A stretch of 64,000 nucleotides of DNA from Patescibacteria group bacterium (GTDB lineage: Bacteria > Patescibacteriota > Microgenomatia > CAYGWK01), in NCBI GenBank assembly GCA_049322615.1, contig JBMORX010000001.1, positions 6,715 through 70,714 on the forward strand, in the 5' to 3' direction. Shown in pieces: positions 819 to 18,474 of this stretch; within the stretch, counting starts at the first letter, position 1, and each line of letters starts with the position of its first letter. The translations under genes and the position numbers were made by a program. The notes under the pieces were generated by a model. It made no database searches and had not been told where the DNA came from. It was given only the letters and a program-made list of their open reading frames with translations.

Positions 819-932
819 TCATCCTTGTCTTTGTTTGTGTCGGGGGTTTGAACAGGTAACAAAAAGCATGCCCCGACGTTTGACAATTTTACAATTTTTA
901 CAGCGTTTTTTTACTGATGCTTGAACTTTCAT
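819..932 (-). CDS. rpmJ: 50S ribosomal protein L36 (37 aa; absent from the ORF track because it is under 60 aa)
   Basis: My own translation of the minus strand gives [37 protein letters not shown], a canonical zinc-ribbon L36; its position between infA and rpsM is the conserved one. Confidence 0.8.
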
Positions 933-962
933 AAGAATCTTAAGTTACTTAAGTGACTTAAG
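933..962 (-). repeat. CTTAAGTNA 9-bp-periodic repeat filling the infA-rpmJ spacer; mRNA sense cuuaagucacuuaaguaacuuaagauucuu-AUG
   Basis: Directly seen. Related copies at 4440..4472, 4895..4928, 5085..5128 and 12189..12225. Confidence 0.8.
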
Positions 963-1184
963 TTACTTATATCTATAAATAATCCTTCCTTTTGTCTGGT
1001 CATATGGCGTCATTTCCACCTTAACCTTGTCTCCTGGCAAAATCCGAATATAGTTCATTCTCATTTTCCCAGAGAGATGGCAAAGCAAAACTCTGCCATC
1101 AGAAAGCTTCACCCTAAAAAGAGTATTGGGCAAAGCCTCGATTACTTCTCCCTCAACTTCAATTGTTCCTTGATGCACCATCAT
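963..1184 (-). CDS. infA: translation initiation factor IF-1
   Basis: 73 aa with an S1-like fold; [24 protein letters not shown] is the IF-1 signature. Confidence 0.95.
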
Positions 1185-1188
1185 GAAA

Positions 1189-1953
1189 TTACTTCGTTAA
1201 CACTAAGGGATCGTTGGCGGTTACGGCGACGGTCTCCTCAAAAAGCCCTGATATTTTACCATCTTTTGTCTTAATTGTCCAGCCATCGGAGGTTAAAACT
1301 ACCTCAGGTAAGCCAAGATTATAGATAACCTCAATTGCTAAAGTCATTCCTTTTTTAAGTTTTGGTGTTTTTTCTACCCTTCCTTCCAAAAAACAGGGAA
1401 TTTGCGGCTCCTCATGAAGAATCCTGCCAATCCCGTGCCCTGTCAAAGCCCGCACTGGAGAAAACCCAGCCTTTTTAATTTCCCCCTCAATGGTTTTGCT
1501 TATCTGTCCTAAATAATTTCCCGCTTTTGCCATTTTAATCGCCTCCTCAAGCGCTTTTCTCCCAGTTTCTAAAAATCTCTCTGTTTCTTCATTTTTAATT
1601 TTTAATTTTTCATTTTTAATTTTTATCGTCTCTGCCATATCCGTATGAAACCCCTTATAATACATTCCCATGTCGACTCCGACAACATCGCCCTCTTTAA
1701 TCTTTCTTTCTCCCGGGATTCCATGAACCACTTCCTCATTGACGGTAATACAGGTTGCCCAAGCATAGCCTGGAACCATTTTAAAGGATGGTTTTCCTCC
1801 AAAAGCTAAAATTTTTTCTTCGGCTTGCTTGTCAAGCTGCAAAGTCGTTATTCCAGGCTTCAAATTTTTTAGAACATGCTCTAAAACCTGTCTTAACCTT
1901 TTTCCGCCTTCTACCATAATCTCAATTTCTTTTTTGCTCTTGAGTGGTATCAC
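1189..1953 (-). CDS. map: methionine aminopeptidase type I
   Basis: 254 aa with the MetAP fold motifs (HGIPG, GHGIGR); conserved position next to adk. It carries an in-frame [12 protein letters not shown] repeat insert. Confidence 0.9.
1589..1627 (-). repeat. AT-rich in-frame repeat (coding sense AAAAATTAAAAATGAAAAATTAAAAAT, giving [12 protein letters not shown]) inside map
   Basis: ttcatttttaatttttaatttttcatttttaatttttat. Confidence 0.6.
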
Positions 1954-2597
1954 TTTAATTTCCCTAAAATATCCTTTAAAACATCCTTAACTGTCTGTTC
2001 GCCGTTAATCTCGACCACCTTGCCCTTTTTTCTATAATAATTAATCATTGGGGATGTTTGGGAGTGATACTCTTTTAGTCTTTTAACAATAGCTTGCGGT
2101 GTCTCATCTTCCCTGATAACTAACTTAACATCGCACTCATCACAAAGTTCATCATTTTTGGGTGGCATAGTTAGCATATTGTAATTCCGTCCACACTTTG
2201 GACAAATTCTTCGAGCTTGCAACCTCCTTATTGATTCCTTTTTGGAAATGTTTAGATAAATTAACTTATCTATCTGATTATTTTTCTTGGCAAGGATCTT
2301 GTCTAGCCATTTAATCTGCGGCAACGTTCGCGGAGAGCCATCAAGGATGAATCCCTTCTTTAGAACCTCTCTGGTTAAAATCTGTCTTAATAGTCTGACA
2401 ACTTCTCTATCAGGTACCAATACACCTCTGTTAATCCAGGCCTTAACCTCTCTTCCAAAAGCCGTGTTTTTTTCCGCAATCTGCCGAAACATCTCCCCAG
2501 TCTCCAGATGAACTAATCCCATTTTTTCTGCTAAAAGCCGAGCCTGCGTTCCTTTCCCTGAACCCTGGGGCCCGGTAATAATGAGATTCATCCTCAA
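1950..2597 (-). CDS. adk: adenylate kinase with zinc-binding lid
   Basis: [11 protein letters not shown]-loop; lid CPKCGRNYN...CDECD. Confidence 0.9.
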
Positions 2598-3886
2598 TAT
2601 CCCTCCAAAAATTTTTCGTAACCTCGCATTTGAATCATATTTTCAATAACCTTAACCGTCTCCAAGACCACGGAAACAACAATTAGAATTCCCGTCCCCC
2701 CGATGGTTAAGGTGGCAATTCCGGTCATTCCCTGGGCAATTGAGGGAAGAATCGCCACCAACCCTAAAAAAATTGCTCCGGCTAAGGTAATCCTTGTCAA
2801 AATCCAATTTAAAAGGTCTGCGGTTGGCGGTCCAGGACGAATGCCGGGAATAAAACCTCCATATTTTTTGATTTCATCAGCAATTTTTGTCGGGTTGAAG
2901 ATAACCGCAGTATAAAAATAAGTAAAACCAACCACCAGGAAAAAGTAAGTTAGATTATAAACCACGCCTCCTGGATTAAAGAAAGTAGCAAAACTGCGAG
3001 CAATTCCCGAAAGAAAGGGATTTGGAACCTGTTCTAAAAACCGACCAAGCATCGAAGGAAGAAGGACCAAGGAAATAGCAAAAATAATCGGAATTACTCC
3101 TGCCTGATTAACTCTTAAAGGCAAATAAGTGCTAGTTCCGCCATACATTCTTCCTCCCCTTATTCTTTTAGCATATTCGATCCGAATTTGGCGCGAGGCT
3201 TCATTAACCACCGTAATCGCCCCAATAACCAAAACTGCCATAACAGAAAAAACAACGATATTGAAAAAGTTCTGGGCTTCAAAAGTGGCTAAAGTCTGCC
3301 CAAGAGCAATTGGGAAGCGCCCGACAATTCCGGCAAAAATAAGAAGGGAGATTCCGTTCCCAATTCCATTTTCGGAAATCAGCTCCCCAAGCCACATCAA
3401 AAAAATTGTCCCACAAGTCATCGTTGTCACCAAAGATATTAGGGCAACAGGAGAAAGGTTCCCCATTATCCCTTGATTTTTCAAAAGGGCGTACATCCCA
3501 AAAGCCTGAAGAGCCGAGAGAGGAACAGTTAAAAATCTAGTATATTGATTAATTTTTTCCCGACCATATTCTCCCTCTTTTGAAAGTTCTTCCAAATAGG
3601 GAAAAACCATGGTTAAAAGTTGAAAAATAATTGAGGCATTAATATAGGGGTTAAGCCCTAAAGCCATGATGGAAAAGTTAGCCAGAGTTCCGCCTGAGAA
3701 AATATCCAAAAGTCCTAAGAATTGACTCCTTTCAAATAAAGCCCGCAAAGAGGGAAGGTCAACCCCCGGAACCGGAATATGGGCTGCCAGTCTAAAAATT
3801 ATAAAAATAAAGGCAGTAAAAACGATCTTTCTTCGCAAATCAGGAATTTGAAAAGCGCTTGCTAGAACTTCAATAATCCTATTCAT
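2594..3886 (-). CDS. secY: preprotein translocase subunit SecY (probable start at the internal Met MNRIIEV at 3886; the track start at 3964 would overlap rplO)
   Basis: 10-TM SecY with the N-terminus [23 protein letters not shown]; conserved position after rplO. Confidence 0.9.
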
Positions 3887-3890
3887 GGCA

Positions 3891-4439
3891 TCACTGAGAC
3901 GCGGAACCCCGCTTAGCGGGGCGCAGAGACGCGGAAATTTTCTGCGTTTCCGCCTGCCCGCCAAGGCTTACGCCATCAGGCGTTGGCAGGCGGGCGGTTA
4001 CAATTTTTCCTCCCGCTTTTTCGATCTTTGCCTTAGCTCCCTTAGAACACGGCAGTTTGACAATTAAGGGAATTTTAACCTCGCCTTCACCTAAAATTTT
4101 AACATTTTTGGATTTGCTATCCTCAATTCTTAATATTCCCTTATCTTCCAGAGTTTTTAAAGTAACCTCTTCTTTGGGAGAAAAAAGATTCAGATACTTT
4201 AAATTGACGATAATTGGTTTTTGGGAACTTGGTTTGAATTTGCCTTTCCCCCTTATTAAAGGCAGTCTTTTAAGAAGAGACTTCTTTATTTTTGTTCCCT
4301 CAAAAAGAAAAGCTATTTTTCCCCTCGCTTTCTGACCTTTGGCGCCCCGACCAACAGTATGACCTCCCTTGCCTGAACCGATTCCCCGACCAATTCTTTT
4401 TTTAGATCTAGTTGTTATTTTAGGTAGTTTGCTTAACAT
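3891..4439 (-). CDS. rplO: 50S ribosomal protein L15 with a roughly 35-aa C-terminal extension encoded by a GC-rich repeat element
   Basis: [25 protein letters not shown]15 motif; 182 aa against a typical ~145; the extension covers 3896..3997. Confidence 0.9.
3896..3997. repeat. GC-rich palindromic element, copy 1 (core 3896..3953 plus an extra inverted repeat to 3997), translated as the L15 C-terminal tail
   Basis: gagacgcggaaccccgcttagcggggcgcagagacgcggaaattttctgcgtttccgc; about 65% GC in a roughly 38% GC context. Confidence 0.8.
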
Positions 4440-4472
4440 ATAAGTTACTTAAGTCACTTAGGTAACTTAAGT
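4440..4472 (-). repeat. CTTAAGTNA repeat spanning the rpsE 3' end (it encodes KLKLPK) and the spacer before the rplO AUG
   Basis: ataagttacttaagtcacttaggtaacttaag. Confidence 0.8.
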
Positions 4473-4894
4473 TTTTTTAATGCCTCAAAAGTGGCATAAA
4501 CATTCGAGGCTTGATTCCGAGTTCCTAAGATTTTTGAAACAATGTCTCTAATTCCTGCCGCTTCAACCACTGCCCTGACTGCTCCTCCGGCAATAACTCC
4601 TGAACCTTCAGGCGCTGGCTTAAGCAAAACTTTCGCTGCTCCAAGTTTAACATAAACTTGATGAGGAATAGTTGTCTCTCTGGTAGGCACAGAAATTAGA
4701 TGCTTTTTAGCGTAAGTTGCTCCTTTTAAGACGGCTGCGGAAACATCAGGAGCTCGGCCTAAACCTACTCCAACTCGACCTTTTTTATCTCCAACAACCA
4801 CTAAAACAGAAAAGGAAATTCTGTTTCCGCCTTTGGTTTTTTTGGAAACCCGATTTACCTGAACTACTTTTTCCTCAAATTCTTCGTTTTCCAT
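4454..4894 (-). CDS. rpsE: 30S ribosomal protein S5
   Basis: S5 dsRBD and C-terminal domain ([17 protein letters not shown]). It is followed directly by rplO with no L30 gene. Confidence 0.95.
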
Positions 4895-4928
4895 AAGTTA
4901 CTTAGGTTACCTAAGTCACTTAATTGAC
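4895..4928 (-). repeat. CTTAAGTNA repeat in the rplR-rpsE spacer, immediately before the rpsE AUG
   Basis: aagttacttaggttacctaagtcacttaattgac. Confidence 0.8.
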
Positions 4929-5222
4929 TTAGAACTCTAACCCTCCTTCCCTGGCTCCTTCGGCTAGGGCTTTTACTCGACCATGATATTTAAATCTTCC
5001 TCGGTCAAAATAGACTTTTTTTATACCTTTTTTCAAGGCTTCCTCGGCTAACAGTTTTCCAACCTGACGACTTCTCTCGATTTTACTTAAGTTACCTAAG
5101 TCACTTAAGTTACTTAAGTCGTTTACCGCCACTAAAGTCTGACCCTCCTCATCGTCAATAATTTGCCCATAAATATATTTATTTGAGCGAAAAACCGAAA
5201 GTCTCAGACGGGTTCTTTTCAT
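4929..5222 (-). CDS. rplR: 50S ribosomal protein L18 (contains an in-frame 9-bp-periodic repeat insert [11 protein letters not shown])
   Basis: L18 fold motifs ([17 protein letters not shown] ... [24 protein letters not shown]). Confidence 0.9.
5085..5128 (-). repeat. CTTAAGTNA repeat inserted in frame inside rplR (encodes [12 protein letters not shown])
   Basis: ttacttaagttacctaagtcacttaagttacttaagtcg, with a 9-bp period that preserves the reading frame. Confidence 0.8.
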
Positions 5223-5800
5223 TTCGTTCCTCCTTTTGCCATACCGGCTGGCGCACCCGCTATTCCAACCTTAACTTGCTTTCCGGGCTTTAATTTAATT
5301 TGCTCTTGCTCAAAGCGGATTCCCTTTCCTTTATAAGCATCTGGGGGCTTAATGGCTCTGATCCGAGCAGCCACTTGCCCCACTAACATCTTATCAGCCC
5401 CCGAAACCGTGATTTTATTTTGGGAAACGGTAAAAGAAATTCCCGGTGGGGGAACAACCTGGATTTGATGGGAAAATCCAAGCGAAAGTGAAAGTTTTCC
5501 CTCAAGCAGGGCTACCCGATAACCTGTTCCTATAATCTCTAGAGTTTTTGACCAACCATCTTTCACCCCTTTTATCATGTTAAAAACAAGATTGCGGATT
5601 GTTCCCTGGTAAGCTTTGGTTTTCTCGGAGGTAGTTTTTTGCGAGAATTGAATTTCCCTCGGGCTGACCTTAACTTTTATTTCCGGAGGCAAGGTTAGGG
5701 AAAGTGAACCTTTTGCTCCAGCCACTTGAATTTTCCCGTCTTTTACTTCTACGGTTACTCCATCTGGTATTTCAACTGGTTTTTTTCCTATCTTAGACAT
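5219..5800 (-). CDS. rplF: 50S ribosomal protein L6
   Basis: Two L6 domains; canonical spc order. Confidence 0.95.
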
Positions 5801-5810
5801 TTGCTCCTTT

Positions 5811-6206
5811 CTACCATATTTCGCAAATCATCTCTCCGCCTAAATTTTTCTTCCTTGCTTCTTCTCCAGTCATAAGTCCTCCGGGGGTAGAGATGATATT
5901 TATTCCTGTTCCTCCCAAAACTTTTTTTATCTCTTTGGCTTTTAGATAAACTCTTACTCCTGGTTTGGAGATGATTTTAACCCCGCTTATCGCTGGTTTT
6001 TTACCTTGGTAAGTTAAGCCAATCTCAAGGACTTTGTTTTTTTGTTTTTTTGACTCTAAAACCTGAAACTTGGCGAGAAATCCTTCATCTACTAAAACCT
6101 TCGCCAACCTTTTACCAAAACCAAAATAAGGAAAAGTGACATCCTTTTTCCTTGCCAAATAAGCATTCTTAATTCTAACTAACATATCTGTAACTCTATC
6201 AGTCAT
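5811..6206 (-). CDS. rpsH: 30S ribosomal protein S8
   Basis: MTDRVTDMLVRIKNA S8 N-terminus. Confidence 0.95.
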   Translation of the reverse strand: MTDRVTDMLVRIKNAYLARKKDVTFPYFGFGKRLAKVLVDEGFLAKFQVLESKKQKNKVLEIGLTYQGKKPAISGVKIISKPGVRVYLKAKEIKKVLGGTGINIISTPGGLMTGEEARKKNLGGEMICEIW

Positions 6207-6216
6207 AAAGATATAA

Positions 6217-6405
6217 TTACCAAGAAGCTTTTTTTACTCCTGGTAATTCTCCTTTCTGGGCAAGTCCGCGAAAACAAAGTCGACAAAGCCCAAAAAGCCG
6301 CATAAAACCTCTTGGTCTGCCACAAACCGCACAGCGATTCCGAAAACGGACTTCATATTTTAGTCTCTTTTGGGTTTGCTTAACAACTTTTGATTTTTTC
6401 GCCAT
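6217..6405 (-). CDS. rpsZ: 30S ribosomal protein S14, zinc-binding type Z
   Basis: 62 aa with CxxC...CxxC (CAVCGRP...CRLCFR). Confidence 0.9.
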
Positions 6406-6876
6406 TTATTTCTCCTTTTTAAAGGGTGCACCTTGCGCCTCGAGTAATTTTTTTGCTTCCTCATCGGTTTTACTCGAGGAGACAATTGTTATCTCAAGTC
6501 CCATCGCTTTTTCGCCTTTTGAAAACTCTGCTTCTGGAAAAACAGTTTGCTCCCTTATTCCAATCGTATAATTGCCATGCCCATCAAAACTTTTTGAGGA
6601 TAATCCACGAAAATCGCGGACTCTTGGCAAAACTAAAGAAAAAAGCTTTTTTAAAAAATCAAACATTTTCTTTCCTCGAAGAGTTACCGCCAAGCCAATG
6701 GGTGCCCCTTTCGAAATCTTAAAACCGGCGATTGATTTTTTCGCCCGACAAATTTTGGGTCTTTGCCCGGTTATCTTTGCCAATATTTCTCCTTGTTTAG
6801 CCAAGAGATTCTCATCGCTTGCTCCCTCTTTTATTCCCACATTGACTACCACCTTTAAAAGTTTTTGTTCTGACAT
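6406..6876 (-). CDS. rplE: 50S ribosomal protein L5
   Basis: L5 signature and spc order. Confidence 0.95.
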   Translation of the reverse strand: MSEQKLLKVVVNVGIKEGASDENLLAKQGEILAKITGQRPKICRAKKSIAGFKISKGAPIGLAVTLRGKKMFDFLKKLFSLVLPRVRDFRGLSSKSFDGHGNYTIGIREQTVFPEAEFSKGEKAMGLEITIVSSSKTDEEAKKLLEAQGAPFKKEK

Positions 6877-6877
6877 T

Positions 6878-7219
6878 TTAAATCACCTCTTTGCATTTTC
6901 GACAAATCCTTAATTTGGAGAGGGCTCCGTCCCCTCCAACTCCCCCAATTATTTTAAAACCTATTCTCGTTGGTTCTCCACACTTTGGACAGATGAAAGC
7001 AACGCTTGAATAAGGCAGGGGGGAAACAATATCAATAATTCCTCCTGAACTTCTGCCTTCCTTTCCCTGGCGGCGTGAGTGTTTTTTGTAGATATTGCAA
7101 CCTGAAACTAAAACTTTTTCTTTCTTTGGAAAAACCTTCTCCACCATTCCCTCTCTGCCTTTGTCTTTTCCTGCTATTATTTTTACCTTATCACCTTTTT
7201 TAAGCTTTGTTTTTCTCAT
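6878..7219 (-). CDS. rplX: 50S ribosomal protein L24 with C-terminal zinc-ribbon extension (CPKCGEP...CRKC)
   Basis: N-terminal KOW motif (KKGDKVKIIAGKDKGREG) followed by a Cys4 extension. Confidence 0.9.
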   Translation of the reverse strand: MRKTKLKKGDKVKIIAGKDKGREGMVEKVFPKKEKVLVSGCNIYKKHSRRQGKEGRSSGGIIDIVSPLPYSSVAFICPKCGEPTRIGFKIIGGVGGDGALSKLRICRKCKEVI

Positions 7220-7572
7220 ACTAGTTCCTCTGCCAGTGAGGCAATTTTGTTAAAACCTTTTTCCTTTACCTCGCGCGCTATTGGTCCAAAAATTCTCGTC
7301 CCTAAGGGATTTCCTTCTTTATCAATTAAAACTCCAGCGTTGTCATCAAAGCGGATGTAAGAACCATCAGGTCTTTTTATTTCTTTTTTTGTTCTGACAA
7401 GCAAAGCCTTAACAATCTGGGAGTCTTTGACCGCTCCGTTTGAGTCTGCTTGATCAACCACACAGACAACTACCTCTCCAATTTTAGCAAAACGGCTTTT
7501 AGTGTGAATTACCTTTAACTTTTTGGCGCCGGTATTATCAGCCGGAACAAGCACGGATCTCAATTGAATCAC
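7216..7572 (-). CDS. rplN: 50S ribosomal protein L14
   Basis: MIQLRSVLVPADNTGAKK, the L14 N-terminus. Confidence 0.95.
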   Translation of the reverse strand: MIQLRSVLVPADNTGAKKLKVIHTKSRFAKIGEVVVCVVDQADSNGAVKDSQIVKALLVRTKKEIKRPDGSYIRFDDNAGVLIDKEGNPLGTRIFGPIAREVKEKGFNKIASLAEELV

Positions 7573-7799
7573 TTTTTAACCACCTCCACTATTTTCCATT
7601 TTTTTGTCTTTGAAATTGGCCGTGTCTGAACAAATTTGACTAAGTCTTTCTCTTTAACGCCAAGTTCGTCATGAACATGATATTTTTTCCTCACCTTTAT
7701 TCTTTTTTTATAAAGAGAGTGGATTTTCTGACGGACGACTCTGACCACGGCTGTTTTTGGCGTTTTTGTCGAAACAACTTCTCCTTTAAATTCTTTCAT
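7569..7799 (-). CDS. rpsQ: 30S ribosomal protein S17
   Basis: OB-fold S17 (GEVVSTKTPKTAVVRV). Confidence 0.9.
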   Translation of the reverse strand: MKEFKGEVVSTKTPKTAVVRVVRQKIHSLYKKRIKVRKKYHVHDELGVKEKDLVKFVQTRPISKTKKWKIVEVVKK

Positions 7800-8005
7800 T
7801 TTTCCTCCAATGCTTTCTTTTCGCTAATTTTGGTTAATATTTGGGCTATTTCGTCCCTTTTTCTTGAAACCGCCCGAACATTTTTGGTCTTCGCCGTTTT
7901 CAAATCCATCTTCAGCTTCACTAAAGAAATTTGCGTCTCCTCCAAAAGTTTTTTAAGCTCTTCTTGGGTTTTGCCTGAGAGTTCTTTTATGTCTTTTCTT
8001 TTCAT
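7796..8005 (-). CDS. rpmC: 50S ribosomal protein L29
   Basis: 69-aa helical protein in the conserved position between L16 and S17. Confidence 0.85.
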   Translation of the reverse strand: MKRKDIKELSGKTQEELKKLLEETQISLVKLKMDLKTAKTKNVRAVSRKRDEIAQILTKISEKKALEEK

Positions 8006-8412
8006 ACGTTTTTAGCAACAAAACGAGTTTTAAAAGGAATCCTATATCCTGCTCGGCGCAAAGCCTCTCGGGCTGCCTCAAGAGGAATTCCGGAAACTTC
8101 AAAAATTATCTTACCCGGAGTTACCGGAACTACAAACCCAACCACGTCCCCCTTACCCGAACCCATTCTTGTTCCGGCTGCCTTTTGGGTTACAGGCTTA
8201 TCGGGAAAGACCCGGACCCAAATTTTGCCTTCCTTGCGCGTAAAAAAGGAAATAGCCCGCCGGGCTGCTTCAAGTTGTTTTTCGCTTAACCTTCCCCTGG
8301 TAACTGCTTTAAGACCAAAGTCGCCGAAAACAATGTTTGCGCCTTTTTCAGAAATTACCCTGGCTCCCCTTCTGAACTGTTTCTTAAATTTTTGTTTTTT
8401 TGGTTGCAACAT
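8002..8412 (-). CDS. rplP: 50S ribosomal protein L16
   Basis: MLQPKKQKFKKQFRG ... L16 signature. Confidence 0.95.
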   Translation of the reverse strand: MLQPKKQKFKKQFRRGARVISEKGANIVFGDFGLKAVTRGRLSEKQLEAARRAISFFTRKEGKIWVRVFPDKPVTQKAAGTRMGSGKGDVVGFVVPVTPGKIIFEVSGIPLEAAREALRRAGYRIPFKTRFVAKNV

Positions 8413-8443
8413 TTACTCTCCTTTATAAGCTTGCTTTCAAGTT

Positions 8444-9073
8444 TTACTTATATATCCAAACCTTGACTCCGACAAAACCTGATTTGGTCAAGGCTGCCAC
8501 TTTAGCAAAATCAATATTCGCCCTAATAGTACTTAAAGGCAGTTTTCCAGCCGCAAATCTCTCCCGGCGGGAGATTTCTGCTCCGGCAATTCGACCAGAA
8601 AGAACGACCTTGACGCCCTTGCCCCCAGCCGTCATCACCCTTTCCATGGCTCGCTTAACTACTCTCCGATGGGGAAGACGACGTTCAAGTTCACTTGAGA
8701 TTCTTGAAGCCACGAGCATTGCCGAAAGCTCAGGGTCGGAAACCTCAACTACCTCGATTTGAACATTCTTCTCCGGTTCAAGCAGAGAGACTAGAGGCAT
8801 TAACATTTTTTTAAGTTCCTCAAGTCCCGAGCCTCCCCGACCAATGACCACCCCGGGTCTGGTAACATGAATAGTGATTTTCATTTTGTGTATCAAGCGG
8901 TCAATCTCCACCCCCACAATTCCCGCCAACTTTAATTTTTCAAACAAAAACTTGCGAATTCTTAAATCCTCAACGAGATTTTTTTGGTAAGCCTTTTTTC
9001 CGGCAAACCAATGTGATTGCCAAGTTTTCCCTTGGCCCATTCTAAAACTTATTGGATTAACTTTTTGTCCCAT
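8444..9073 (-). CDS. rpsC: 30S ribosomal protein S3
   Basis: MGQKVNPISFR, plus KH and S3-C domains. Confidence 0.95.
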   Translation of the reverse strand: MGQKVNPISFRMGQGKTWQSHWFAGKKAYQKNLVEDLRIRKFLFEKLKLAGIVGVEIDRLIHKMKITIHVTRPGVVIGRGGSGLEELKKMLMPLVSLLEPEKNVQIEVVEVSDPELSAMLVASRISSELERRLPHRRVVKRAMERVMTAGGKGVKVVLSGRIAGAEISRRERFAAGKLPLSTIRANIDFAKVAALTKSGFVGVKVWIYK

Positions 9074-9083
9074 ATTCGCTGAT

Positions 9084-9503
9084 TTACGCAGATTTTTTAA
9101 CTGATCTACGCTGATTGCCTCCTTTTTCGTTAGCCCCTGATACTTTTGATGTCTCTAACATCTTCTTTTTTTCAGCTTCCGCCTCAAGGATCACTTTTAT
9201 ATGACTTGTTCTTTTTTTAATTGGATGAGCCTGACCTCGGGAAACTGGCTGAAAACGTTTATATATCGGTCCTTCGCTTACTTCTATTTTTTTTATCTTC
9301 AAATCCTCATTTTTTAAAGAAAAATTATTTTGGGCGTTGGCAATTGCCTGTTTTAAGGTTTTGCTTAACCATTCTCCTCTTTTGCCTGCTTGAGAAAGCA
9401 AGACAAGTGCCTGTTTTGAGTTCATTCCCCGAATACTGTCGGCGACCAAACGCAGTTTTCGCGGGCTAATCCTTGTATATCTTGACTTGGCAACAATTTC
9501 CAT
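9084..9503 (-). CDS. rplV: 50S ribosomal protein L22
   Basis: L22 fold (AKSRYTRISPRKLRLVADSIRG). Confidence 0.9.
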   Translation of the reverse strand: MEIVAKSRYTRISPRKLRLVADSIRGMNSKQALVLLSQAGKRGEWLSKTLKQAIANAQNNFSLKNEDLKIKKIEVSEGPIYKRFQPVSRGQAHPIKKRTSHIKVILEAEAEKKKMLETSKVSGANEKGGNQRRSVKKSA

Positions 9504-9788
9504 TTAGGTTTTCTCCAAAATTCTTTTGACTACTTGTCCGTGACCTCGGAAAATTCGAGTTTGAGCAAATTCACCAAGCCTATGCCCAACCATTGCCTCA
9601 GTCACAAAAATTTCTTTAAAATCCTTTCCGGTATGAACTTGAAATTTGTGACCAACAAACTCTGGCGGAATCTGGCAGCTTCTTGCCCAAGTTTTAATTG
9701 GCTCATGAGAATCTTTGGCTTTTTGAGCCTGAACTTTTTTGAGCAATTTTTGATCAATATATGGACCTTTTTTAGAACTTCGTGCCAT
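9504..9788 (-). CDS. rpsS: 30S ribosomal protein S19
   Basis: MARSSKKGPYID ... GHKFQVHTGK. Confidence 0.95.
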   Translation of the reverse strand: MARSSKKGPYIDQKLLKKVQAQKAKDSHEPIKTWARSCQIPPEFVGHKFQVHTGKDFKEIFVTEAMVGHRLGEFAQTRIFRGHGQVVKRILEKT

Positions 9789-9791
9789 AAT

Positions 9792-10553
9792 TTACCTCCG
9801 TCGCTTAATAATCCATTTATCGCTATATTTTCCTTTCTTTCTTGTTCTTTTCCCCAAAGTTGGTTTCCCCCAAGGAGACACAGGTCCGGGCATGCCAATC
9901 CCTGACCTTCCTTCTCCACCTCCATGGGGATGAGAGGCCGGATGTTGGGCAACCCCCCTTACCGTTGGTTTTATTCCCATGTGTCTTTTTCTCCCTGCTT
10001 TAGCAAATTTGACATTTTTCCAATCAATGTTACCAACTTGGCCAATGGTGGCAAAACAATTTAGGGAAATTTTTCTTGTCTCTCCAGAAGGAAGTTTAAC
10101 CACGGCAAAATCTTTCTCTTTAGCCAAAACTGAAGCGGATGAGCCGGCTGACCTTATAACTTGTCCCCCTTTGCCTGGGGTAAGTTCAAGGTTATGAATC
10201 GGAGTTCCAATCGGAATTTTAGAAAGTGGTAGGTGGTTACCTATTTTTACTTCGACTTGGGGCCCTGAAACCACCTCGTCCCCAACATGCAAGCCCTCTG
10301 GGGCTAAAATATAGCGTTTCTCTCCATCAGAATAGGCAAGAAGAGCAAGGTTAGCAGTCCGATTCGGGTCATACTCAAATGCTAACACTTTAGCCTGGAT
10401 ACCAAACTTTTCTCTTTTAAAATCTATTTCCCGCATAAATCTTTTTTCTCTTCCTGCCTGATGACGAACTGTCACCTTTCCCCACGAGGATCTTCCTGCT
10501 TTTTTCTTGAGAATTCTTATTAATGACTTTTCAGGAATGCTTTTGGTTATCAT
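9792..10553 (-). CDS. rplB: 50S ribosomal protein L2
   Basis: [32 protein letters not shown], the L2 C-terminal signature. Confidence 0.95.
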
Positions 10554-10858
10554 TTTTTCTCCTCCTCTTTTCCGGTTTCGAAAACATCAATTTTTTGTCC
10601 TTCTTTTAGTTTAACAATTGCTTTTTCCCAATTGCCTAAACGATATTCTCTTCTGGTCTTAAGCGCCCGCCGAGTCTTTCCCTTGACAACCATTGTTTTT
10701 ACCTTCTTAACATCTACTCCAAAAACTTTTTTTAATGCTTGAACAATATCTTTCTTTTTGGCGTTTTTGTCTACCTCAAATGTGTATTCACCTTTAGAAG
10801 CAGCCTCAAGCGATTTTTCGGAAATTATTGGTCGTTTTAAAACTAATCCTTGCTCCAT
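10550..10858 (-). CDS. rplW: 50S ribosomal protein L23
   Basis: L23 fold in the conserved position. Confidence 0.9.
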
Positions 10859-11514
10859 TTTTCCTCCATAATTTTAAGCGCTTCTTTGGTGATTAAAATT
10901 TTCCTCGCTTTTAGAATCTCGTAGGTATTTAATAAATTAACCTGGGTAGGTCTTACTCCTTCAATATTTCTGGTAGCAAGAATAACATCTTCAACTGATT
11001 CAGGTAGAACAACTAAAATTTTTAATTTTGCTTTGCCCGCCTGTCGGCGAGGCAGGTCATTTTTCATTTTTAATTTTAAATTTTTAATTATCTTTAACAT
11101 CTCTTTTGTCTTTTTCACTTTTTCAAGTCCTTCAACAACCACTATTTCTTTGTCTGAAGCTTTGCTGGATAAGGCAGAGATAATGGCAGCTCGGCGCATT
11201 TTTTTAGGCAAAGTCATTTGGTAATTCTCAAGTCCGGTTGGTCCATGTGCCTTGCCGCCACCGACAAAAATCGGAGCCGAGCGGGCCCCATGCCTTGCCC
11301 GACCAGTTCCCTTTTGGCGAAACCATTTTGCTTTTGTCCTTGAAACTTGAGCGCGGGTTTTGGCTTTTGCCCGAGCTTTCCGTTGGTTACTCAAATAGAC
11401 CCTTACTGCTTGAGCCAAAAGAGATGGGTTTATCTTTGCCCCAAAAATTTTTTTGGGCAGGGAAATTTTTGGTTTTTTTGTTCCTGATAAAGTTATTACC
11501 TCGGCATAAATCAT
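10843..11514 (-). CDS. rplD: 50S ribosomal protein L4 (contains an in-frame lysine-rich repeat insert KNLKLKMKN)
   Basis: L4 family; conserved S10-operon position. Confidence 0.9.
11058..11092 (-). repeat. The same AT-rich in-frame repeat inside rplD (encodes [11 protein letters not shown])
   Basis: gtcatttttcatttttaattttaaatttttaatt. Confidence 0.55.
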
Positions 11515-12188
11515 ACTTTTTCCTCCTCACCTTTCTCTGGGCTCTCCATTTCTTTCTGCACCCTCTGCCTTGCAGGTTTCTTAATAATCAAAAGCCCCTT
11601 TTTTGCTCCAGGAACCAAACCCTTAACTAAAAGTAGATTTTTCTCAGGCAAAACTTCAAAAACTTGCAAATTCCGCACTGTTACCCTTGCCCCACCCATT
11701 CTTCCAGCCATTTTCTTACCTTTTAAAACTCTTCCTGGAGTGGTGGTTGAGCCAATTGAGCCTGGAGCCCTTTCTCTGTCTGACTGACCATGAGTTTTAG
11801 GTCCTCCGGCAAATCCCCATCTTTTAACCACCCCGGCAAAACCTTTGCCTTTGGAAGTGCCCGTAACATCAACAATATCTCCAGGTTTTAAAACATCCCC
11901 AACTTTAATCTCATCCCCAACTTTAAGATTAGCGCTGATTTCCTGCTGATTAGCGCTGACTTCTCGCAAAAAGCGGGGGATAATTTTTAACCCCGCTTTT
12001 TTTATGTGCCCTAAAATTGGTTTCTTGGTCTTTTTTTCTTTTTTTTCACCAAATCCAAGCTGAACTGAATCTTTTTTAATTTGAACCACGAAACAGGGAC
12101 CAGCCTGAATTTGGCTTACTGGGATTCGCTCTCCTTCGCTGGTAAATTTTTGCGTTTGTCCTAATTTTATTCCTAAAATCGTATCCAT
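11511..12188 (-). CDS. rplC: 50S ribosomal protein L3
   Basis: L3 signature (KGKGFAGVVKRWGFAGGPKTHGQS). Confidence 0.95.
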   Translation of the reverse strand: MDTILGIKLGQTQKFTSEGERIPVSQIQAGPCFVVQIKKDSVQLGFGEKKEKKTKKPILGHIKKAGLKIIPRFLREVSANQQEISANLKVGDEIKVGDVLKPGDIVDVTGTSKGKGFAGVVKRWGFAGGPKTHGQSDRERAPGSIGSTTTPGRVLKGKKMAGRMGGARVTVRNLQVFEVLPEKNLLLVKGLVPGAKKGLLIIKKPARQRVQKEMESPEKGEEEKV

Positions 12189-12225
12189 AAGTTACTTAGG
12201 TTACTTAAGTCACTTAAGTATTACC
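12189..12225 (-). repeat. CTTAAGTNA repeat immediately upstream of the rplC AUG
   Basis: ataagttacttaggttacttaagtcacttaagtattaccc. Confidence 0.8.
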
Positions 12226-12228
12226 CAC

Positions 12229-12250
12229 CAAAAAAGTGCCAGGAGGCACT
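12229..12250 (-). terminator. intrinsic terminator/attenuator hairpin 45 nt upstream of the rplC start (minus-strand sense agugccuccuggcacuuuuuugg)
   Basis: 6-bp GC-rich stem with a U6 run on the minus-strand transcript. Confidence 0.6.
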
Positions 12251-12325
12251 TCTCTTGAAAACTTGTGCCAAGCCGAAAAACCTCTTTTTAATCGGGTGAA
12301 TTCACCTCCATTTCAATTAGGAAAT

Positions 12326-12354
12326 ATTATACTAAAAAGGAAGGTAAGATGCAA
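12326..12354 (-). promoter_or_regulatory. sigma70-like promoter (TTGCAT-17-TATAAT on the minus strand) driving the rplC leader
   Basis: Reverse complement of 12321..12356 is atttgcatcttaccttcctttttagtataatatttc. Confidence 0.55.
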
Positions 12355-12372
12355 ATGAAGAATTGGGTATTA

Positions 12373-12394
12373 CAAAAAATGGCGCGGTCGCGCC
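12373..12394 (-). terminator. intrinsic terminator downstream of rpsJ (GGCGCGGTCGCGCC palindrome with a U-run on the minus strand)
   Basis: aaaaaatggcgcggtcgcgccaaaatat. Confidence 0.55.
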
Positions 12395-12422
12395 AAAATA
12401 TGTAATATTGCGATGGAAAACC

Positions 12423-12452
12423 TACATCTTGATTTCGATGTCGACGCCTGCC
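12423..12452 (-). repeat. duplicated copy of the last 9 codons plus stop of rpsJ (AGVDIEIKM*), about 100 bp downstream of the real rpsJ 3' end
   Basis: ctacatcttgatttcgatgtcgacgcctgc against the real rpsJ end ctacattttgatctcaatgtcgacgcctgc at 12527..12556: 27 of 30 identical. Confidence 0.8.
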
Positions 12453-12531: not shown

Positions 12532-12840
12532 CTACATTTTGATCTCAATGTCGACGCCTGCAGGGAGATCGAGGTGTTGGAGGGAATCAATGGTTTTTTC
12601 CGTAGGTTCTAAAATATCAATTAAGCGCTTGTGAGTGAGAATTTCAAAATGTTCCCGGGCATCTTTGTCAGTATGAGGAGAAGTGGTAACGCAGATTAAT
12701 TTTCTCTGGGTTGGTAAGGGGATGGGTCCGGAAATTTTGGCACCTGAGGCTAGAGCCGCCTCCAAAATTTTTGAAGCGGCTTCATCAATAACCCGGTGAT
12801 CGTAAGATTTTAAACGTACTCTAATTCTTCCTTTAGGCAT
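12532..12840 (-). CDS. rpsJ: 30S ribosomal protein S10 (start taken at [14 protein letters not shown]; the longer track ORF starts further upstream)
   Basis: Canonical S10 sequence. Confidence 0.95.
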
Positions 12841-12928: not shown

Positions 12929-14128
12929 TTAGGAAATTACTTTGGAAATCACCCCAGCCCCAACTGTGTGTCCGCCTTCCCGAATAGCAAATCTTAATCC
13001 TTCTTCCATTGCCACTGGTTGAATTAACTTTACCTTCATCTTGGCATTATCCCCTGGCATAACCATTTCTACCCCCGAGGGCAGAGTGGTTTCTCCAGTA
13101 ACGTCAGTAGTTCTGATATAAAACTGGGGTCTGTACCCGGTGAAGAAAGGAGTGTGTCTTCCTCCCTCTTCTTTGGTTAAAATATAAACTTCAGCCTCAA
13201 ATTCGGTGTGAGGAGTAATTGTCCCAGGCTTTGCTAAAACCTGACCCCGCTCAACATCATCTTTTTCAATTCCCCGAAGTAAAACTCCAATATTGTCTCC
13301 TGCCTGACCTTCGTCCAATGACTTTCTAAACATCTCAATCCCGGTGACAACTGTCTTTTTGGTTGGTCTAATTCCCACAATTTCAATCTCATCATTTAAC
13401 TTTACCTTACCTCGTTCAACCCGACCGGTAACGACTGTTCCCCGACCTTTAATTGAGAAAACATCCTCAATTGGCATTAAAAATGGCTTATCCAAATCTC
13501 GAGTAGGGGTTGGAATATTCTCATCAACCGCCTTGGTCAAATCCAAAATTGCTTTTTCTGCCTCAGCGTCTCCTTCAAGAGCCTTCAATGCCGAACCGCG
13601 AATAATCGGAATTTTATCCCCTGGAAACTGATATTTAGTCAAAAGTTCCCTAATTTCCATCTCAACCAAATCTAAAAGCTCTGGATCGTCAACCATATCA
13701 ACTTTATTTAAGAAAACGACAATTGCCGGAACATTTACCTGGCGAGCCAAAAGAATATGTTCTCGGGTTTGAGGCATTGGTCCATCAGGAGCGGAAACGA
13801 CCAAAATTGCGCCATCCATCTGGGCCGCTCCGGTAATCATGTTTTTGACAAAGTCCGCATGTCCCGGACAGTCAATATGAGCATAGTGGCGATTATCGGT
13901 CTCGTATTCGGAATGATGAATGTTAATAGTTACCCCGCGTTCTTTTTCTTCTGGAGCATTGTCAATGTCATAGAAATCCAAGGCTTTGGTTTTATTACCT
14001 GGCTGCTTTGATAAAACGTGGGTAATGGCGGCGGTTAGAGTAGTTTTTCCGTGGTCAACGTGACCAATCGTCCCAATGTTTAAATGGGGTTTGGTTCTTT
14101 CAAATTTTGCTTTTGCTGTTTCTGCCAT
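12929..14128 (-). CDS. tuf: elongation factor Tu
   Basis: [25 protein letters not shown] GTPase motifs; 399 aa. Confidence 0.97.
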
Positions 14129-17914: not shown

Positions 17915-17950
17915 TTTTTGTATCATTGTACTATGACAGTGATACAAACA
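17915..17950 (+). promoter_or_regulatory. operator-like motif copy B overlapping a TTGACA promoter and ending at the ATG of the TrpR/YerC-like gene
   Basis: cttgacaaaatttttgtatcattgtactatgacagtgatacaaacatg. Confidence 0.6.
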
Positions 17951-18474
17951 TGGGAAGAACAACTTACTATCCAAGAATTAAAAGAATTGAAAAACTAAAA
18001 AGAGAAGAGATTTTGGAATTGATGTTTGACTTACTTAATGCCTTTCGCCTAGTGAATTCGCCCCTTGAGACGGCTTTTTTAATCCAAGATCTTTTAACTG
18101 CCAATGAAATTAAAAATTTAGCCAAAAGACTTCGTATCGCCAAACTTTTATTGGAAGACAAAACCCAAAGAGAGATTGCCCAGGAAGTCAAAGTAAGCTT
18201 GGCGACGGTCACCAAAGTTAATTTGTGGCTGATGCAGGGAGGAGAAGGATTCAAAAGAGTAATCTCAAAACTGCCAAAAAAATACCAAATACCAAAAAAA
18301 CTGCCGCCGCGACCACTAACTTTTAATCTTCCGGAAACTCTTTTAATTTTGGCTTCTTATGGTTTAGCCAAAAGACAGGAGAAAAATTTGGAAAAATTCC
18401 TTCAAGGAGTTGAAAATAAACAAATCCTTGATAGAAACCTTCGCGAAGTCTTTGATGAAGAATTCAGAAAATAA
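17950..18474 (+). CDS. TrpR/YerC-like helix-turn-helix DNA-binding protein (ATG at 17950 preferred over the track's TTG at 17926)
   Basis: LLTANEIKNLAKRLRIAKLLLEDKTQREIAQEVKVSLATVTKV follows the Trp-repressor-like YerC/YecD family pattern; the gene is flanked by operator-like motifs. Confidence 0.6.
   Translation: MGRTTYYPRIKRIEKLKREEILELMFDLLNAFRLVNSPLETAFLIQDLLTANEIKNLAKRLRIAKLLLEDKTQREIAQEVKVSLATVTKVNLWLMQGGEGFKRVISKLPKKYQIPKKLPPRPLTFNLPETLLILASYGLAKRQEKNLEKFLQGVENKQILDRNLREVFDEEFRK

Follow-up and report, generated by a model that had tools for sequence, protein, structure and literature searches.

A 9-bp-periodic palindromic repeat at cistron junctions and inside rplR in a Patescibacteria ribosomal-protein cluster

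In the 64-kb stretch of Patescibacteria DNA analysed here (the window), one 9-bp-periodic sequence stands at the start codons of four ribosomal-protein genes and recurs, in frame, inside a fifth, rplR. Is it a signal that these genes use, or a piece of DNA that they are able to accommodate? We think it probable, though well short of certain, that each run is one copy of a short DNA repeat dispersed in Microgenomates genomes, similar to REP, RPE and MIRU elements and compatible with translation.

Five arrays in the ribosomal-protein cluster

The preliminary description reported five CTTAAGTNA runs among genes transcribed from the minus strand. Strand and number were both borne out; the runs are arrays of 9-bp units, and their coordinates were refined to TA-bounded limits. 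A search of the window with CTTAAGTNACTTAAGTNA, allowing up to 3 mismatches, returned 31 overlapping matches versus 0.94 expected, all at the same five places, and the exact 8-mer ACTTAAGT occurred 10 times (1.09 expected), with 9 of the 10 within arrays. A relaxed array search of the window added just two matches elsewhere, both at chance level. All five arrays lie in the ribosomal-protein cluster, within 12 of the 64 kb, and the other 51 kb contain none. The element is discrete, TA(RGTNACYTA)3-4, 29-38 bp long, and can equally be described as three to four overlapping 11-bp inverted repeats, TARGT-N-ACYTA, in a 9-bp register. The five copies, all among minus-strand genes, are as follows:

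c1, 932-969: TA plus four units, filling the infA-rpmJ junction; the rpmJ ATG begins with A932.
c2, 4441-4469: TA plus three units, from the rpsE 3' end across the junction with rplO.
c3, 4894-4931: TA plus four units, an exact fill of the rplR-rpsE junction.
c4, 5088-5116: TA plus three units within the rplR reading frame, and a partial unit reaching 5083.
c5, 12188-12216: TA plus three units, directly 5' of rplC; A12188 is the A of its ATG.

Three of the arrays contain the stop codon of an upstream gene. The TNA of a c1 unit supplies the infA TAA (963-965, minus strand), that of a c2 unit the rpsE TGA (4454-4456), and the first TA(A) of c3 is the rplR stop codon, TAA. At the other end, array and start codon overlap by one base for rpmJ, rpsE (the final A of c3) and rplC, the terminal A of the array opening the ATG, and one extra T separates c2 from the rplO ATG (4439). 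The c1 unit that adjoins the rpmJ ATG is degenerate, reading AGAATCTTA on the plus strand. The original proposal that four copies make up the entire spacer 5' of a start codon holds in that each ATG is fused to its array or lies one T away, but it fails for rplC, where the spacer behind rpsJ is 343 nt long and c5 covers just its final 29-37 nt, downstream of a conserved rplC leader with a T-run hairpin. Likewise, c2 does encode the final residues of S5 (...KLKLPK*), as proposed, but the ...KKLK part is ancestral, since relative L005 has AAA AAG CTT AAA.

The copy inside rplR encodes L18 residues D35-S46 in the frame NAC-YTA-RGT and, in an AF2 model of L18, lies in the linker that joins strand 28-34 to helix 47-64. 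It had been thought to be a private addition of 11 residues. Neither point survived comparison with orthologues: the segment is common to a subclade of L18 proteins, and a length check gave +3 residues relative to the matching stretch of Thermus L18. The proposed use of the element as coding sequence was sustained, in that the orthologues share the nucleotide motif and not the peptide alone. Codon choice in the rplR arrays follows the motif and not genome usage: Leu is YTA in 25/28 cases, Ser is AGY in 16/17, Gly is GGT in 10/11, Asn is AAC in 12/13 and Asp is GAC in 15/18, where the background for those choices is 0.2-0.4. The same codon pattern was found in independent metagenome loci, and lineages whose L18 proteins are only 66-81% identical still keep the motif at synonymous sites. 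Judged by these codons, the rplR copy is conserved at the nucleotide level. This counts against the reading favoured here: an insert that is purely selfish ought to decay, and the persistence of this one needs either continuing conversion or a function.

Occurrence in other genomes and fit to reading frames

We scanned one genome per species (185,579 species genomes) with CYTARGTNACYTARGTNACYTARGT. Loci were called by an exact nucleotide pattern and genes by a crude ORF rule, and the fractions given for the matches listed are approximate. More than 118 stretches were present among the matches listed, ~97 of them of the heterogeneous-N type and from Microgenomates-type MAGs; the same element thus occurs at more than 97 listed loci of Microgenomates (CPR; ultra-small bacteria), with at least 4-6 matching loci per genome. 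The non-CPR and viral matches were simple homogeneous arrays, visibly different. The label 'uncultured Gammaproteobacteria' on some MAGs was wrong: the L2 of one such MAG had its best named matches in Gottesmanbacteria/Patescibacteria (70-76% identity), and the mislabelled MAGs are syntenic with named Microgenomates. Microgenomates genes behind arrays include enolase, gyrA, dnaN, carB, ndk, rplK and others, and in-frame copies were seen in genes for L18, a four-helix-bundle protein, a phosphoesterase and large surface proteins. Further copies, in other genomes, lie at the tuf-rpsJ, rplN-rplX and rplB-rpsS junctions.

The number of units is narrowly distributed, with 3 (49 cases), 4 (68), 5 (4) and 6 (1) per array among the matches listed. 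Replication slippage, by which ordinary microsatellite-type repeats would have arisen independently at each site, would suit the trivially tandem structure and the range of 3-5 units in the L18 subclade. However, hundreds of sites spread over many genomes have one and the same unit, degenerate at the same positions, array length is capped at 4 units and is mostly 3-4, and the homogeneous simple arrays are seen instead in the non-CPR and viral matches. Identical N in adjacent units (50/255 among the matches listed) is below expectation and not enriched; therefore, the element is not a slippage microsatellite. A slippage or VNTR origin, contradicted by this count and by the unit-number distribution, is very improbable.

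The half-sites are palindromic, with variation just at the symmetric positions 2 and 5 and at the central N, and the consensus has no internal start codon. Strand asymmetry of N is weak, the element being nearly strand-symmetric, and no base-pair covariation was found between the Y/R positions of neighbouring units. Predicted hairpins of the arrays have z scores of -1.3 to -3.2 and end 0-13 nt before the AUG; an Rfam search with the arrays gave no match, even at E up to 1. Because of the near symmetry of the strands and the lack of pairing covariation, a DNA-level repeat fits better than a dedicated RNA signal.

Among the matches listed, 81 of 183 arrays (~44%) lay inside ORFs, 44 (~24%) spanned a stop-to-start junction, 17 adjoined only a start and 25 only a stop. 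Copies fell outside ORFs in ~56% of cases versus ~11% of random positions, 89% of the latter being in open frames. The enrichment by start codons suggested at the outset was upheld, with an ORF-opening ATG adjoining 39% of listed copies versus 18% of random positions. Among the 97 long ORFs in the matches listed that end at an array, 79 take their stop codon from it. The in-ORF arrays of the matches listed are always open, using the frames NAC-YTA-RGT (66) and CYT-ARG-TNA (15) and never TAR (0). One frame of the element is always open (x-Leu-Ser/Gly), one always stops (TAR) and one stops if N is A or G; its end, ...CYTA, becomes a start codon when followed by TG. Since it offers open, stopping and start-making frames, the element can sit in a protein loop, as in rplR, and by the same properties it can replace a cistron junction while the upstream gene is still ended and the next one started.

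Array sites do not coincide with predicted promoters; they are cistron junctions within operons and the interior of ORFs. This location bears on the suggestion that the array is a site for a dimeric, sequence-specific DNA-binding protein on three to four adjacent palindromes, as with MetJ, or a chromosome-organising site like parS or matS, and is for that reason conserved even in genes. The palindromic half-sites with their symmetric variation, the bound of 3-4 units, the equivalence of the strands without RNA-pairing covariation, and the conservation of the rplR motif at synonymous sites are all consistent with such a site. In form the array does resemble MetJ operators, which comprise 2-5 adjacent 8-bp palindromes (here ACYTARGT plus 1 nt). 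However, met boxes stand at the promoters of one regulon and are bound by a known repressor, whereas the arrays lie at cistron junctions and in ORFs, away from promoters, and turn over between lineages, orthologous sites often gaining or losing a copy. No protein emerged as a candidate, and fusion to start and stop codons would be left unexplained. We consider a protein-binding site distinctly unlikely.

Initiation at array-led genes

The four array-led genes have no Shine-Dalgarno (SD) site before them, as first described: their predicted anti-SD duplexes reach only -0.9 to -3.7 kcal/mol, versus -5.8 to -12.2 kcal/mol for 17 other cluster genes, energies being computed against ACCUCCUUA, an assumed canonical 16S tail that may not be this organism's own. 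It had also been stated that other cluster genes bear strong SDs, which is true of many but not of tuf, rpsC, rpmC, rpsH, infA and secY. SD-less genes without arrays thus exist in the cluster, and this organism translates tuf, rpsC, rpmC and rpsH with no SD; SD loss is tolerated. A role for the array as an SD or other rRNA-complementary translational enhancer was rejected, array leaders having no complementarity to the 16S 3' tail (canonical tail assumed).

Since essential genes sit behind arrays, some compatibility of the arrays with translation must exist. The downstream ATG is in the 9-bp register, as CYT-ATG, in three of the four leaders here and in 26 of 65 elsewhere among the matches listed. 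In 24 register-fused leaders of the matches listed, the motif extends back to exactly -37, i.e., four units, and the last unit is A/U-biased, with R = A in 21/24 and N never G; the SD-like variant, R = G, is under-used (3/24). The precision of the ATG fusion and the A/U preference of the last unit point to some translation-related selection. Ribosomes may initiate on array-led genes independently of an SD, using the short A/U-rich tail, or may re-initiate after terminating inside the array.

Is the array, then, primarily a translation signal, a portable cassette for SD-independent initiation or for termination-reinitiation (coupling)? A terminating ribosome would open the hairpin of palindromic units and so expose the A/U-rich tail and the fused AUG. 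The register of the ATGs, the A/U-rich last unit, the hairpins ending just short of the AUG and the upstream ORFs that stop within arrays would all be expected of such a cassette. So would the replacement of SDs before essential, highly expressed genes (those for S5, L15, L3, L36, L11, L24, enolase, gyrA and dnaN) and the retention of an array at the start of orthologues in different genomes (rplK, carB, ndk). Against it stand the ~44% of listed copies within ORFs and others that adjoin stops only, the near strand symmetry with no compensatory variation to maintain pairing, the lack of complementarity to the canonical anti-SD, the array-free SD-less genes of the same cluster, and the rare, scattered occurrence of copies in orthologous ribosomal-protein operons. 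We therefore regard a primary role in translation as possible, although unlikely.

Turnover of copies and relation to known repeats

The copies differ in age. A relative with 76% L18 identity (L001) has an array at the same infA-rpmJ junction, its last unit before the ATG likewise degenerate, while in L005 this junction has none. The rpsE-rplO junction is array-free in relatives L001, L003, L005, L124 and L125. At the rplR-rpsE junction, seven relatives have overlapping or tight genes, TTCTAATG, with the SD, GGAGG, in the L18 3' end, so that c3 represents a 35-nt gain; at the rplC start, relatives have GAAACAGAGAG-ATG or similar instead of c5. The nearest L18 relatives (78-81% identity) are without the junction copies. 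By these comparisons the rplR and infA/rpmJ copies are old, and the rplR/rpsE, rpsE/rplO and rplC copies are recent, lineage-specific gains that displaced SD sites. The three recent copies were probably copied from one another; c3 and c5 are identical at 34/36 nt, ATGGA included. More generally, same-genome pairs of copies share more variable positions than between-genome pairs (6.25/9 versus 5.68/9, p = 1.6e-6).

In an unbiased set of 80 orthologous Microgenomates ribosomal-protein clusters, we found just six copies:

rplN-rplX junction, one copy.
rplB-rpsS junction, one copy.
rpsJ-rplC junction, one copy.
Inside rplR, two copies.
Inside rplC, one copy.

With so few copies and such varying junctions, the array is not a conserved operon signal. 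The preliminary description had also raised an RNA-binding site for autoregulation, here an mRNA site for a ribosomal protein acting on the spc/S10 operons. Although all five copies of the window lie in a ribosomal-protein cluster and one follows the conserved rplC leader, the same element occurs before or within unrelated genes, nearly all the orthologous clusters lack it and no Rfam family matches it. Regulation of rplC probably lies with the conserved leader and its T-run hairpin, present in array-free relatives. This suggestion was accordingly dropped, and we give it almost no credence.

A dispersed DNA repeat that translation can accommodate would account for these patterns as follows. 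Within one genome, copying or conversion would carry the element from site to site; it would come and go at orthologous sites and would persist where harmless, its harmlessness being built into the sequence alike on both strands. The preliminary idea of a dispersed leader element is thus retained as to dispersal, coding use and start-codon enrichment, but not as a signal specific to ribosomal-protein genes, given the ~44% of copies in ORFs. Template switching or gene conversion may account for its spread, or else an enzyme with a possible link to the four-helix-bundle cassette described below. No target-site duplication, clean empty-versus-filled pair or mobilising enzyme was found; the sole alignable empty-versus-filled pair (rplR/rpsE) shows the 35-nt gain with no clean TA duplication, though the elements begin and end with TA.

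The closest parallels are with known dispersed repeats. Like the REP/BIME elements of enterobacteria and pseudomonads, which are associated with RAYT, the arrays are short imperfect palindromes (20-40 bp in REPs, 29-38 bp here) able to form stem-loops and apparently dispersed in many copies, for the most part between cistrons of an operon or directly behind a stop codon; copies are more alike within than between genomes, and arrays flank a recurrent gene as REPs flank RAYT genes. Unlike REPs, they have a 9-bp periodicity from overlapping 11-bp inverted repeats, no GTAG head in the consensus and many copies in frame in genes or fused to start codons, and the recurrent neighbouring gene encodes a four-helix-bundle protein instead of a Y1/HUH transposase (RAYT). 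Rickettsia palindromic elements (RPEs) are also palindromic, lie in frame in unrelated coding genes, at surface positions that tolerate the peptide, and occur between genes. However, RPEs are 100-150 bp long, not tandem-periodic, and not known outside Rickettsia; the arrays are unrelated to the RPE sequence families, belong to a different phylum and, whichever way round they lie, specify the same x-L-S/G peptide. MIRUs share the intercistronic position in operons, where the upstream stop and downstream start overlap the repeat (as in c1-c3 and the 44/183 listed junction arrays), compatible with translational coupling, but are 46-101-bp direct repeats with small ORFs, neither palindromic nor in frame in genes. 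Correia elements and other MITEs are likewise small, non-coding, palindromic, TA-bounded and co-transcribed and can form mRNA hairpins; Correia elements, however, measure 100-155 bp, their terminal inverted repeats are distinct and a TA duplication can be demonstrated for them; for the arrays no duplication could be shown, and they have no known transposase partner.

At 26 of 118 loci among the matches listed, a four-helix-bundle gene (TIGR02436 + TIGR04258) is flanked and interrupted by arrays, and it occupies different sites within one syntenic neighbourhood. This seemingly movable cassette encodes no known transposase. The TIGR02436/PF05635-like four-helix-bundle family is known from 23S rRNA intervening sequences. 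Arrays and gene might jointly make up a mobile system of CPR bacteria that has not been described before, with solo 38-bp arrays as non-autonomous members that now serve as portable stop-plus-start modules; we put this forward tentatively and think it rather unlikely. In such a system the unit [array]-four-helix-bundle gene-[array] would move, for instance to the 45 bp that separate tRNA-Arg(CCT) from tRNA-Pro(CGG). If this were so, array modules could replace SD-based junctions even in the core ribosomal-protein operons of these bacteria.

Repeat arrays at gene junctions in the window

The 9-bp repeat runs reported by the preliminary description are real: CTTAAGTNACTTAAGTNA with up to 3 mismatches gave 31 overlapping matches in the window vs. 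0.94 expected, confined to five places, and Tandem Repeats Finder placed 9-bp arrays at the same five sites. Nine of the 10 occurrences of the exact palindrome ACTTAAGT in the window (1.09 expected) fell inside arrays, and beyond the arrays a relaxed pattern search of the window returned just two matches, both at chance level. The unit is more accurately written TA(RGTNACYTA)n, i.e., overlapping 11-bp inverted repeats TARGT-N-ACYTA. The genes concerned are ordered on the minus strand as tuf, rpsJ, rplC ... rplF, rplR, rpsE, rplO, secY, adk, map, infA, rpmJ, rpsM, and the cluster has no L30 gene, which is usually missing in CPR bacteria. The arrays are:

932-969, infA/rpmJ junction
4441-4469, rpsE/rplO junction
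4894-4931, rplR/rpsE junction
5088-5116, within rplR
12188-12216, 5' of rplC

Read on the mRNA strand, infA, rpsE, and rplR each have their stop codon within an array, and the array's last base is the A of the ATG in rpmJ, rpsE, and rplC; the array provides the stop of the upstream gene and has its last A in common with the start of the downstream one. All four array-led genes do lack a Shine-Dalgarno (SD) sequence, as had been described, with anti-SD duplexes of -0.9 to -3.7 kcal/mol vs. -5.8 to -12.2 kcal/mol for 17 other, SD-bearing genes of the cluster. The array RNA has a modest predicted hairpin ending 0-13 nt 5' of the AUG. An SD is also missing in six further genes, namely secY and the following five, which are highly expressed and array-less:

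12929-14128, tuf
8444-9073, rpsC
7796-8005, rpmC
5811-6206, rpsH
963-1184, infA

Since these five have neither an SD nor an array, SD-independent initiation is apparently commonplace in this organism.

Comparison with relatives showed that the junction copies are not conserved. In seven relatives with L18 71-81% identical to that of the window, rplR and rpsE meet at a tight junction, ...GAAGGAGGnTTnnAnTTCTAATG, without an array, and the rpsE SD is a GGAGG inside the L18 3' end. The rpsE/rplO and rplC arrays are likewise missing in relatives, and the infA/rpmJ array is the only junction copy in common with a relative (locus L001). These three young copies (rplR/rpsE, rpsE/rplO, and rplC) have removed SD-based junctions 5' of essential genes. 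A metagenome scan for dating the junction copies found no relative closer than 88% S5 identity. The one alignable pair of empty and filled sites, with a 35-nt gain at rplR/rpsE, spoke against a TA target-site duplication or transposon footprint. The rplR/rpsE and rplC arrays, 7.3 kb apart, match at 34 of 36 nt and agree at all variable positions but one, which argues for copying between sites of the genome. The window is exceptional in holding five arrays inside 12 kb, and this clustering suggests local copying; clusters also occur elsewhere (8 arrays in 4.4 kb at L020, 7 in 3 kb at L107), and arrays are more similar within than between genomes.

The array within rplR

The segment of L18 encoded by the rplR array had been taken for an insertion; alignment of orthologues showed that it is not a private one. 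Window L18 is identical to that of a "Patescibacteria group bacterium" MAG (contig of 110,692 bp), and among named relatives a Shapirobacteria L18 comes closest. Aligned orthologues of an L18 subclade share a stretch of 3-5 (D/N)-L-(S/G) units, periodic at 3 residues, which was not found in the aligned L18 of more distant Microgenomates or Thermus. The stretch is just 3 residues longer than its counterpart in solved Thermus L18 and, in an AlphaFold model (mean pLDDT 83.7), forms the linker from strand 28-34 to helix 47-64. Because it is shared by the subclade, exceeds Thermus by only 3 residues, and lies in a linker, the rplR array is an old in-frame copy, common to the subclade and placed in a loop. 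The nucleotide resemblance to the spacer repeat stood: relatives' rplR DNA retains the motif, and codon choice tracks the motif rather than genome usage, in three independent metagenome loci as well. In the rplR of L005, the motif has decayed to TTG and AGC codons while the peptide is retained.

Codon choice in the rplR array (codon, in array, background)
Leu YTA, 25/28, 0.40
Ser AGY, 16/17, 0.2-0.3
Gly GGT, 10/11, 0.2-0.3
Asn AAC, 12/13, 0.31
Asp GAC, 15/18, 0.32

Distribution and gene associations

A scan with CYTARGTNACYTARGTNACYTARGT of 185,579 species, each represented by a single genome, returned at least 118 stretches. Among the matches listed, at least 41 were named Microgenomates-type CPR MAGs (Gottesman-, Shapiro-, Davies-, Roizman-, Curtiss-, Levy-, and Collierbacteria, WWE3), at least 50 were third-party assemblies labelled "uncultured Gammaproteobacteria" or "Saccharibacteria," at least 6 were unnamed "bacterium" MAGs, and at least 21, from other taxa, were of a simple homogeneous array type. 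The "uncultured Gammaproteobacteria" label is in all probability wrong for these MAGs, since L2 of one of them (L086) has its best named matches in Gottesmanbacteria and Patescibacteria (70-76% identity). These MAGs further resemble named Microgenomates in gene order and in one gene at 50-65% identity, and those under either label appear to be Microgenomates. The loci under these labels number 47 (L006, L010, L012, L013 ... L121) plus L041, L089, and L094. A phage origin was rejected, as the 15 viral-contig matches were mostly simple homogeneous repeats. A literature search found no paper with the repeat sequence or describing such a repeat.

The arrays had also been proposed to act as leaders of ribosomal-protein genes or as sites of autoregulation. 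Pattern-found loci do include further ribosomal-protein sites (tuf|rpsJ, rplN|rplX, rplB|rpsS). However, in an unbiased set of 80 orthologous clusters (726 kb) obtained by a protein-based S5 metagenome search, just 5 of 80 clusters held arrays, 6 in total (rplN|rplX, again ATG-fused; rplB|rpsS; rpsJ|rplC; rplR, two; rplC, one), so that the arrays are not a ribosomal-protein feature. What probably regulates rplC is a conserved leader upstream of the array rather than the array itself. This leader combines a promoter-like site with a GGAGGTGA-containing element, either hairpin or mini-ORF, and a T-run G+C hairpin; it is present in relatives without any array, and in many Microgenomates rplC is immediately preceded by a T-run hairpin. 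This leader, without an Rfam match, is a candidate attenuator-type ribosomal-protein leader:

12217-12400, minus, conserved rpsJ-rplC leader (elsewhere L001 2940-3200; L003 2930-3140; L145, L183, L199, L209, L215)
12395-12380, minus, terminator-like hairpin
12355-12326, minus, promoter-like TTTGCA-18-TATAAT
12311-12288, minus, AAATGGAGGTGAnTTCACC and possible 7-codon ORF MEV(N/I)SPD*
about 12250-12230, minus, G+C hairpin with T run, just 5' of rplC

In the same spacer, a second copy of the rpsJ 3' end, stop codon included, lies 110 nt downstream of the first, forming a 30-nt direct repeat (12422-12451 and 12532-12561, 90% identical).

A different gene recurs beside the arrays of other genomes. 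At least 26 of at least 118 loci, among the matches listed, encode a four-helix-bundle protein of ~190 aa (TIGR02436 and TIGR04258 above cut-offs, PF05635 weakly), with arrays flanking the gene at both the 5' and the 3' end and two more in frame inside it; no homologue was found in the 64-kb window. The gene occupies differing sites within one syntenic neighbourhood. Five genomes have it between divergent tRNA-Arg(CCT) and tRNA-Pro(CGG), with a gap of 630-705 bp, while in L033, L042, and L065 the two tRNA genes are 44-45 bp apart; other sites are after mreB, between argS and a phosphoesterase, and beside tRNA-Val. Judged from these positions, the array-flanked gene looks like a mobile cassette. 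The five tRNA-flanked cassettes are:

L006, 4080-4892
L083, 3869-4688
L100, 4085-4863
L112, 3331-4185
L120, 3175-3988

Nature of the element

Across the clade, loci were defined by exact nucleotide pattern and genes by a crude ORF rule, so that the fractions are approximate. Array size is bounded (3 units in 49, 4 in 68, 5 in 4, and 6 in 1). In the unit after the last perfect one, positions 1-4 (CYTA) are ~90% conserved and conservation then ends, indicating that the element starts and ends with TA. Unit variation is restricted to positions 2 (Y), 5 (R), and 8 (N), and sense-strand N is mildly purine-rich (60%, p = 0.025). A selected RNA hairpin was rejected, since Y is not correlated with R in neighbouring units (Fisher p = 0.10 and 0.21) and N(i)/N(i+2) complementarity is not above chance. 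Identical neighbouring N are depleted (50/255), which speaks against slippage and growth by 9-bp target duplication. No genuine Rfam match appeared on 1-14.5 kb even at E up to 1, nor did the whole window give one at the gathering threshold. That such an array is primarily a protein-binding DNA array we regard as distinctly improbable.

CTTAAG, CCTAGG, and GTNAC are the AflII, AvrII, and MaeIII sites. A restriction-modification origin was discarded, as CTTAAG, CCTAGG, CTTAGG, CCTAAG, GTNAC, and RGTNACY are at Markov expectation outside arrays, and no link was found between the arrays and the window's CcrM/HinfI-like pair. Other features of the window are:

31713-33460, minus, type II restriction-modification pair: CcrM/HinfI-like N6-adenine methyltransferase (PDB 6pbd, E = 1e-73) and adjoining restriction endonuclease (PADLOC REase_II, 4e-78)
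17926-18474, plus, Trp-repressor-family protein (PF01371, E = 1.7e-17), between fusA and rpsG-rpsL

The pair lies in a low-GC stretch at ~28-34 kb (34-35% vs. ~41% elsewhere) with several ORFs without family match. In the window outside arrays, CTNAG is rarer than expected (107 vs. 183, z = -5.6; all four variants low, ratios 0.46-0.73) and GATC is low (ratio 0.62), with GANTC, like GTNAC and CTTAAG, at expectation. Restriction pressure may have left this shortage; CTTAG and CTAAG are present in the arrays themselves.

The earlier proposal of a dispersed element also taken up into coding sequence is right. In the wider set, ~81 of 183 arrays lie within long ORFs (control, 89% of random positions in open frames). 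Their frames are NAC-YTA-RGT in 66, CYT-ARG-TNA in 15, and TAR in none. A further 44 of the 183 bridge a stop to a start, 17 have only a start and 25 only a stop as neighbour, and 79 of 97 long ORFs ending at an array take their stop codon from it. Among 65 ORF-opening ATGs within 30 nt of an array, the offset was 3 in 20 and 26 lay in that register. In 24 register-fused leaders the motif reaches back to exactly -37, and the last unit is A/U-rich (R = A in 21/24; N never G). The start-adjacent unit is often a variant, CTTAAGA(W)(W)CTTATG, with A in place of the motif T (AAGATTC, AAGAATC, AAGATAC, AAGAAAC), an orientation-specific feature of some copies (window 932-942; L114 and L166 upstream of rpsS; L012, L071, L101, L107).

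SD mimicry by UAGGU or UAAG was rejected on account of weak duplexes and avoidance of the G variant near the ATG; pairing with the 16S region GUAACAAGGUAACC needs, on paper, mRNA N = U, yet A predominates. Nor is a gene class enriched, since register-fused arrays are followed by housekeeping genes of diverse kinds; these include enolase, gyrA, dnaN, carB, ndk, rplK, rplX, nadD, pilC, and DNA ligase. The possibility that the array primarily serves translation is an unlikely one in our estimation. A purely selfish model has most difficulty with the nucleotide-level conservation in rplR and the exact fusion to start codons. We consider it reasonably probable that the array is a dispersed palindromic repeat of Microgenomates, REP/RPE/MIRU-like, harmless at cistron junctions and in one frame. 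Such an element would spread at the DNA level, and array-led genes would still be translated, with ribosomes either initiating on the A/U-rich tail independently of an SD or re-initiating once they have terminated within the array.

If this is true, Microgenomates own a family of miniature palindromic repeats of 9-bp modular build, which encode the same harmless peptide in either orientation, carry their own stop codons, and fuse at one end to start codons. Gene calling, start prediction from SDs, and protein alignment can all be led astray by the repeat (spurious "LSNLS" similarity, C-terminal tails), which would also provide strain-typing markers for unculturable organisms. The cassette association, if true, would be a concrete lead on the function of a widespread four-helix-bundle family. 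Loss of the SD would likewise be tolerated at essential ribosomal-protein junctions of a reduced genome.
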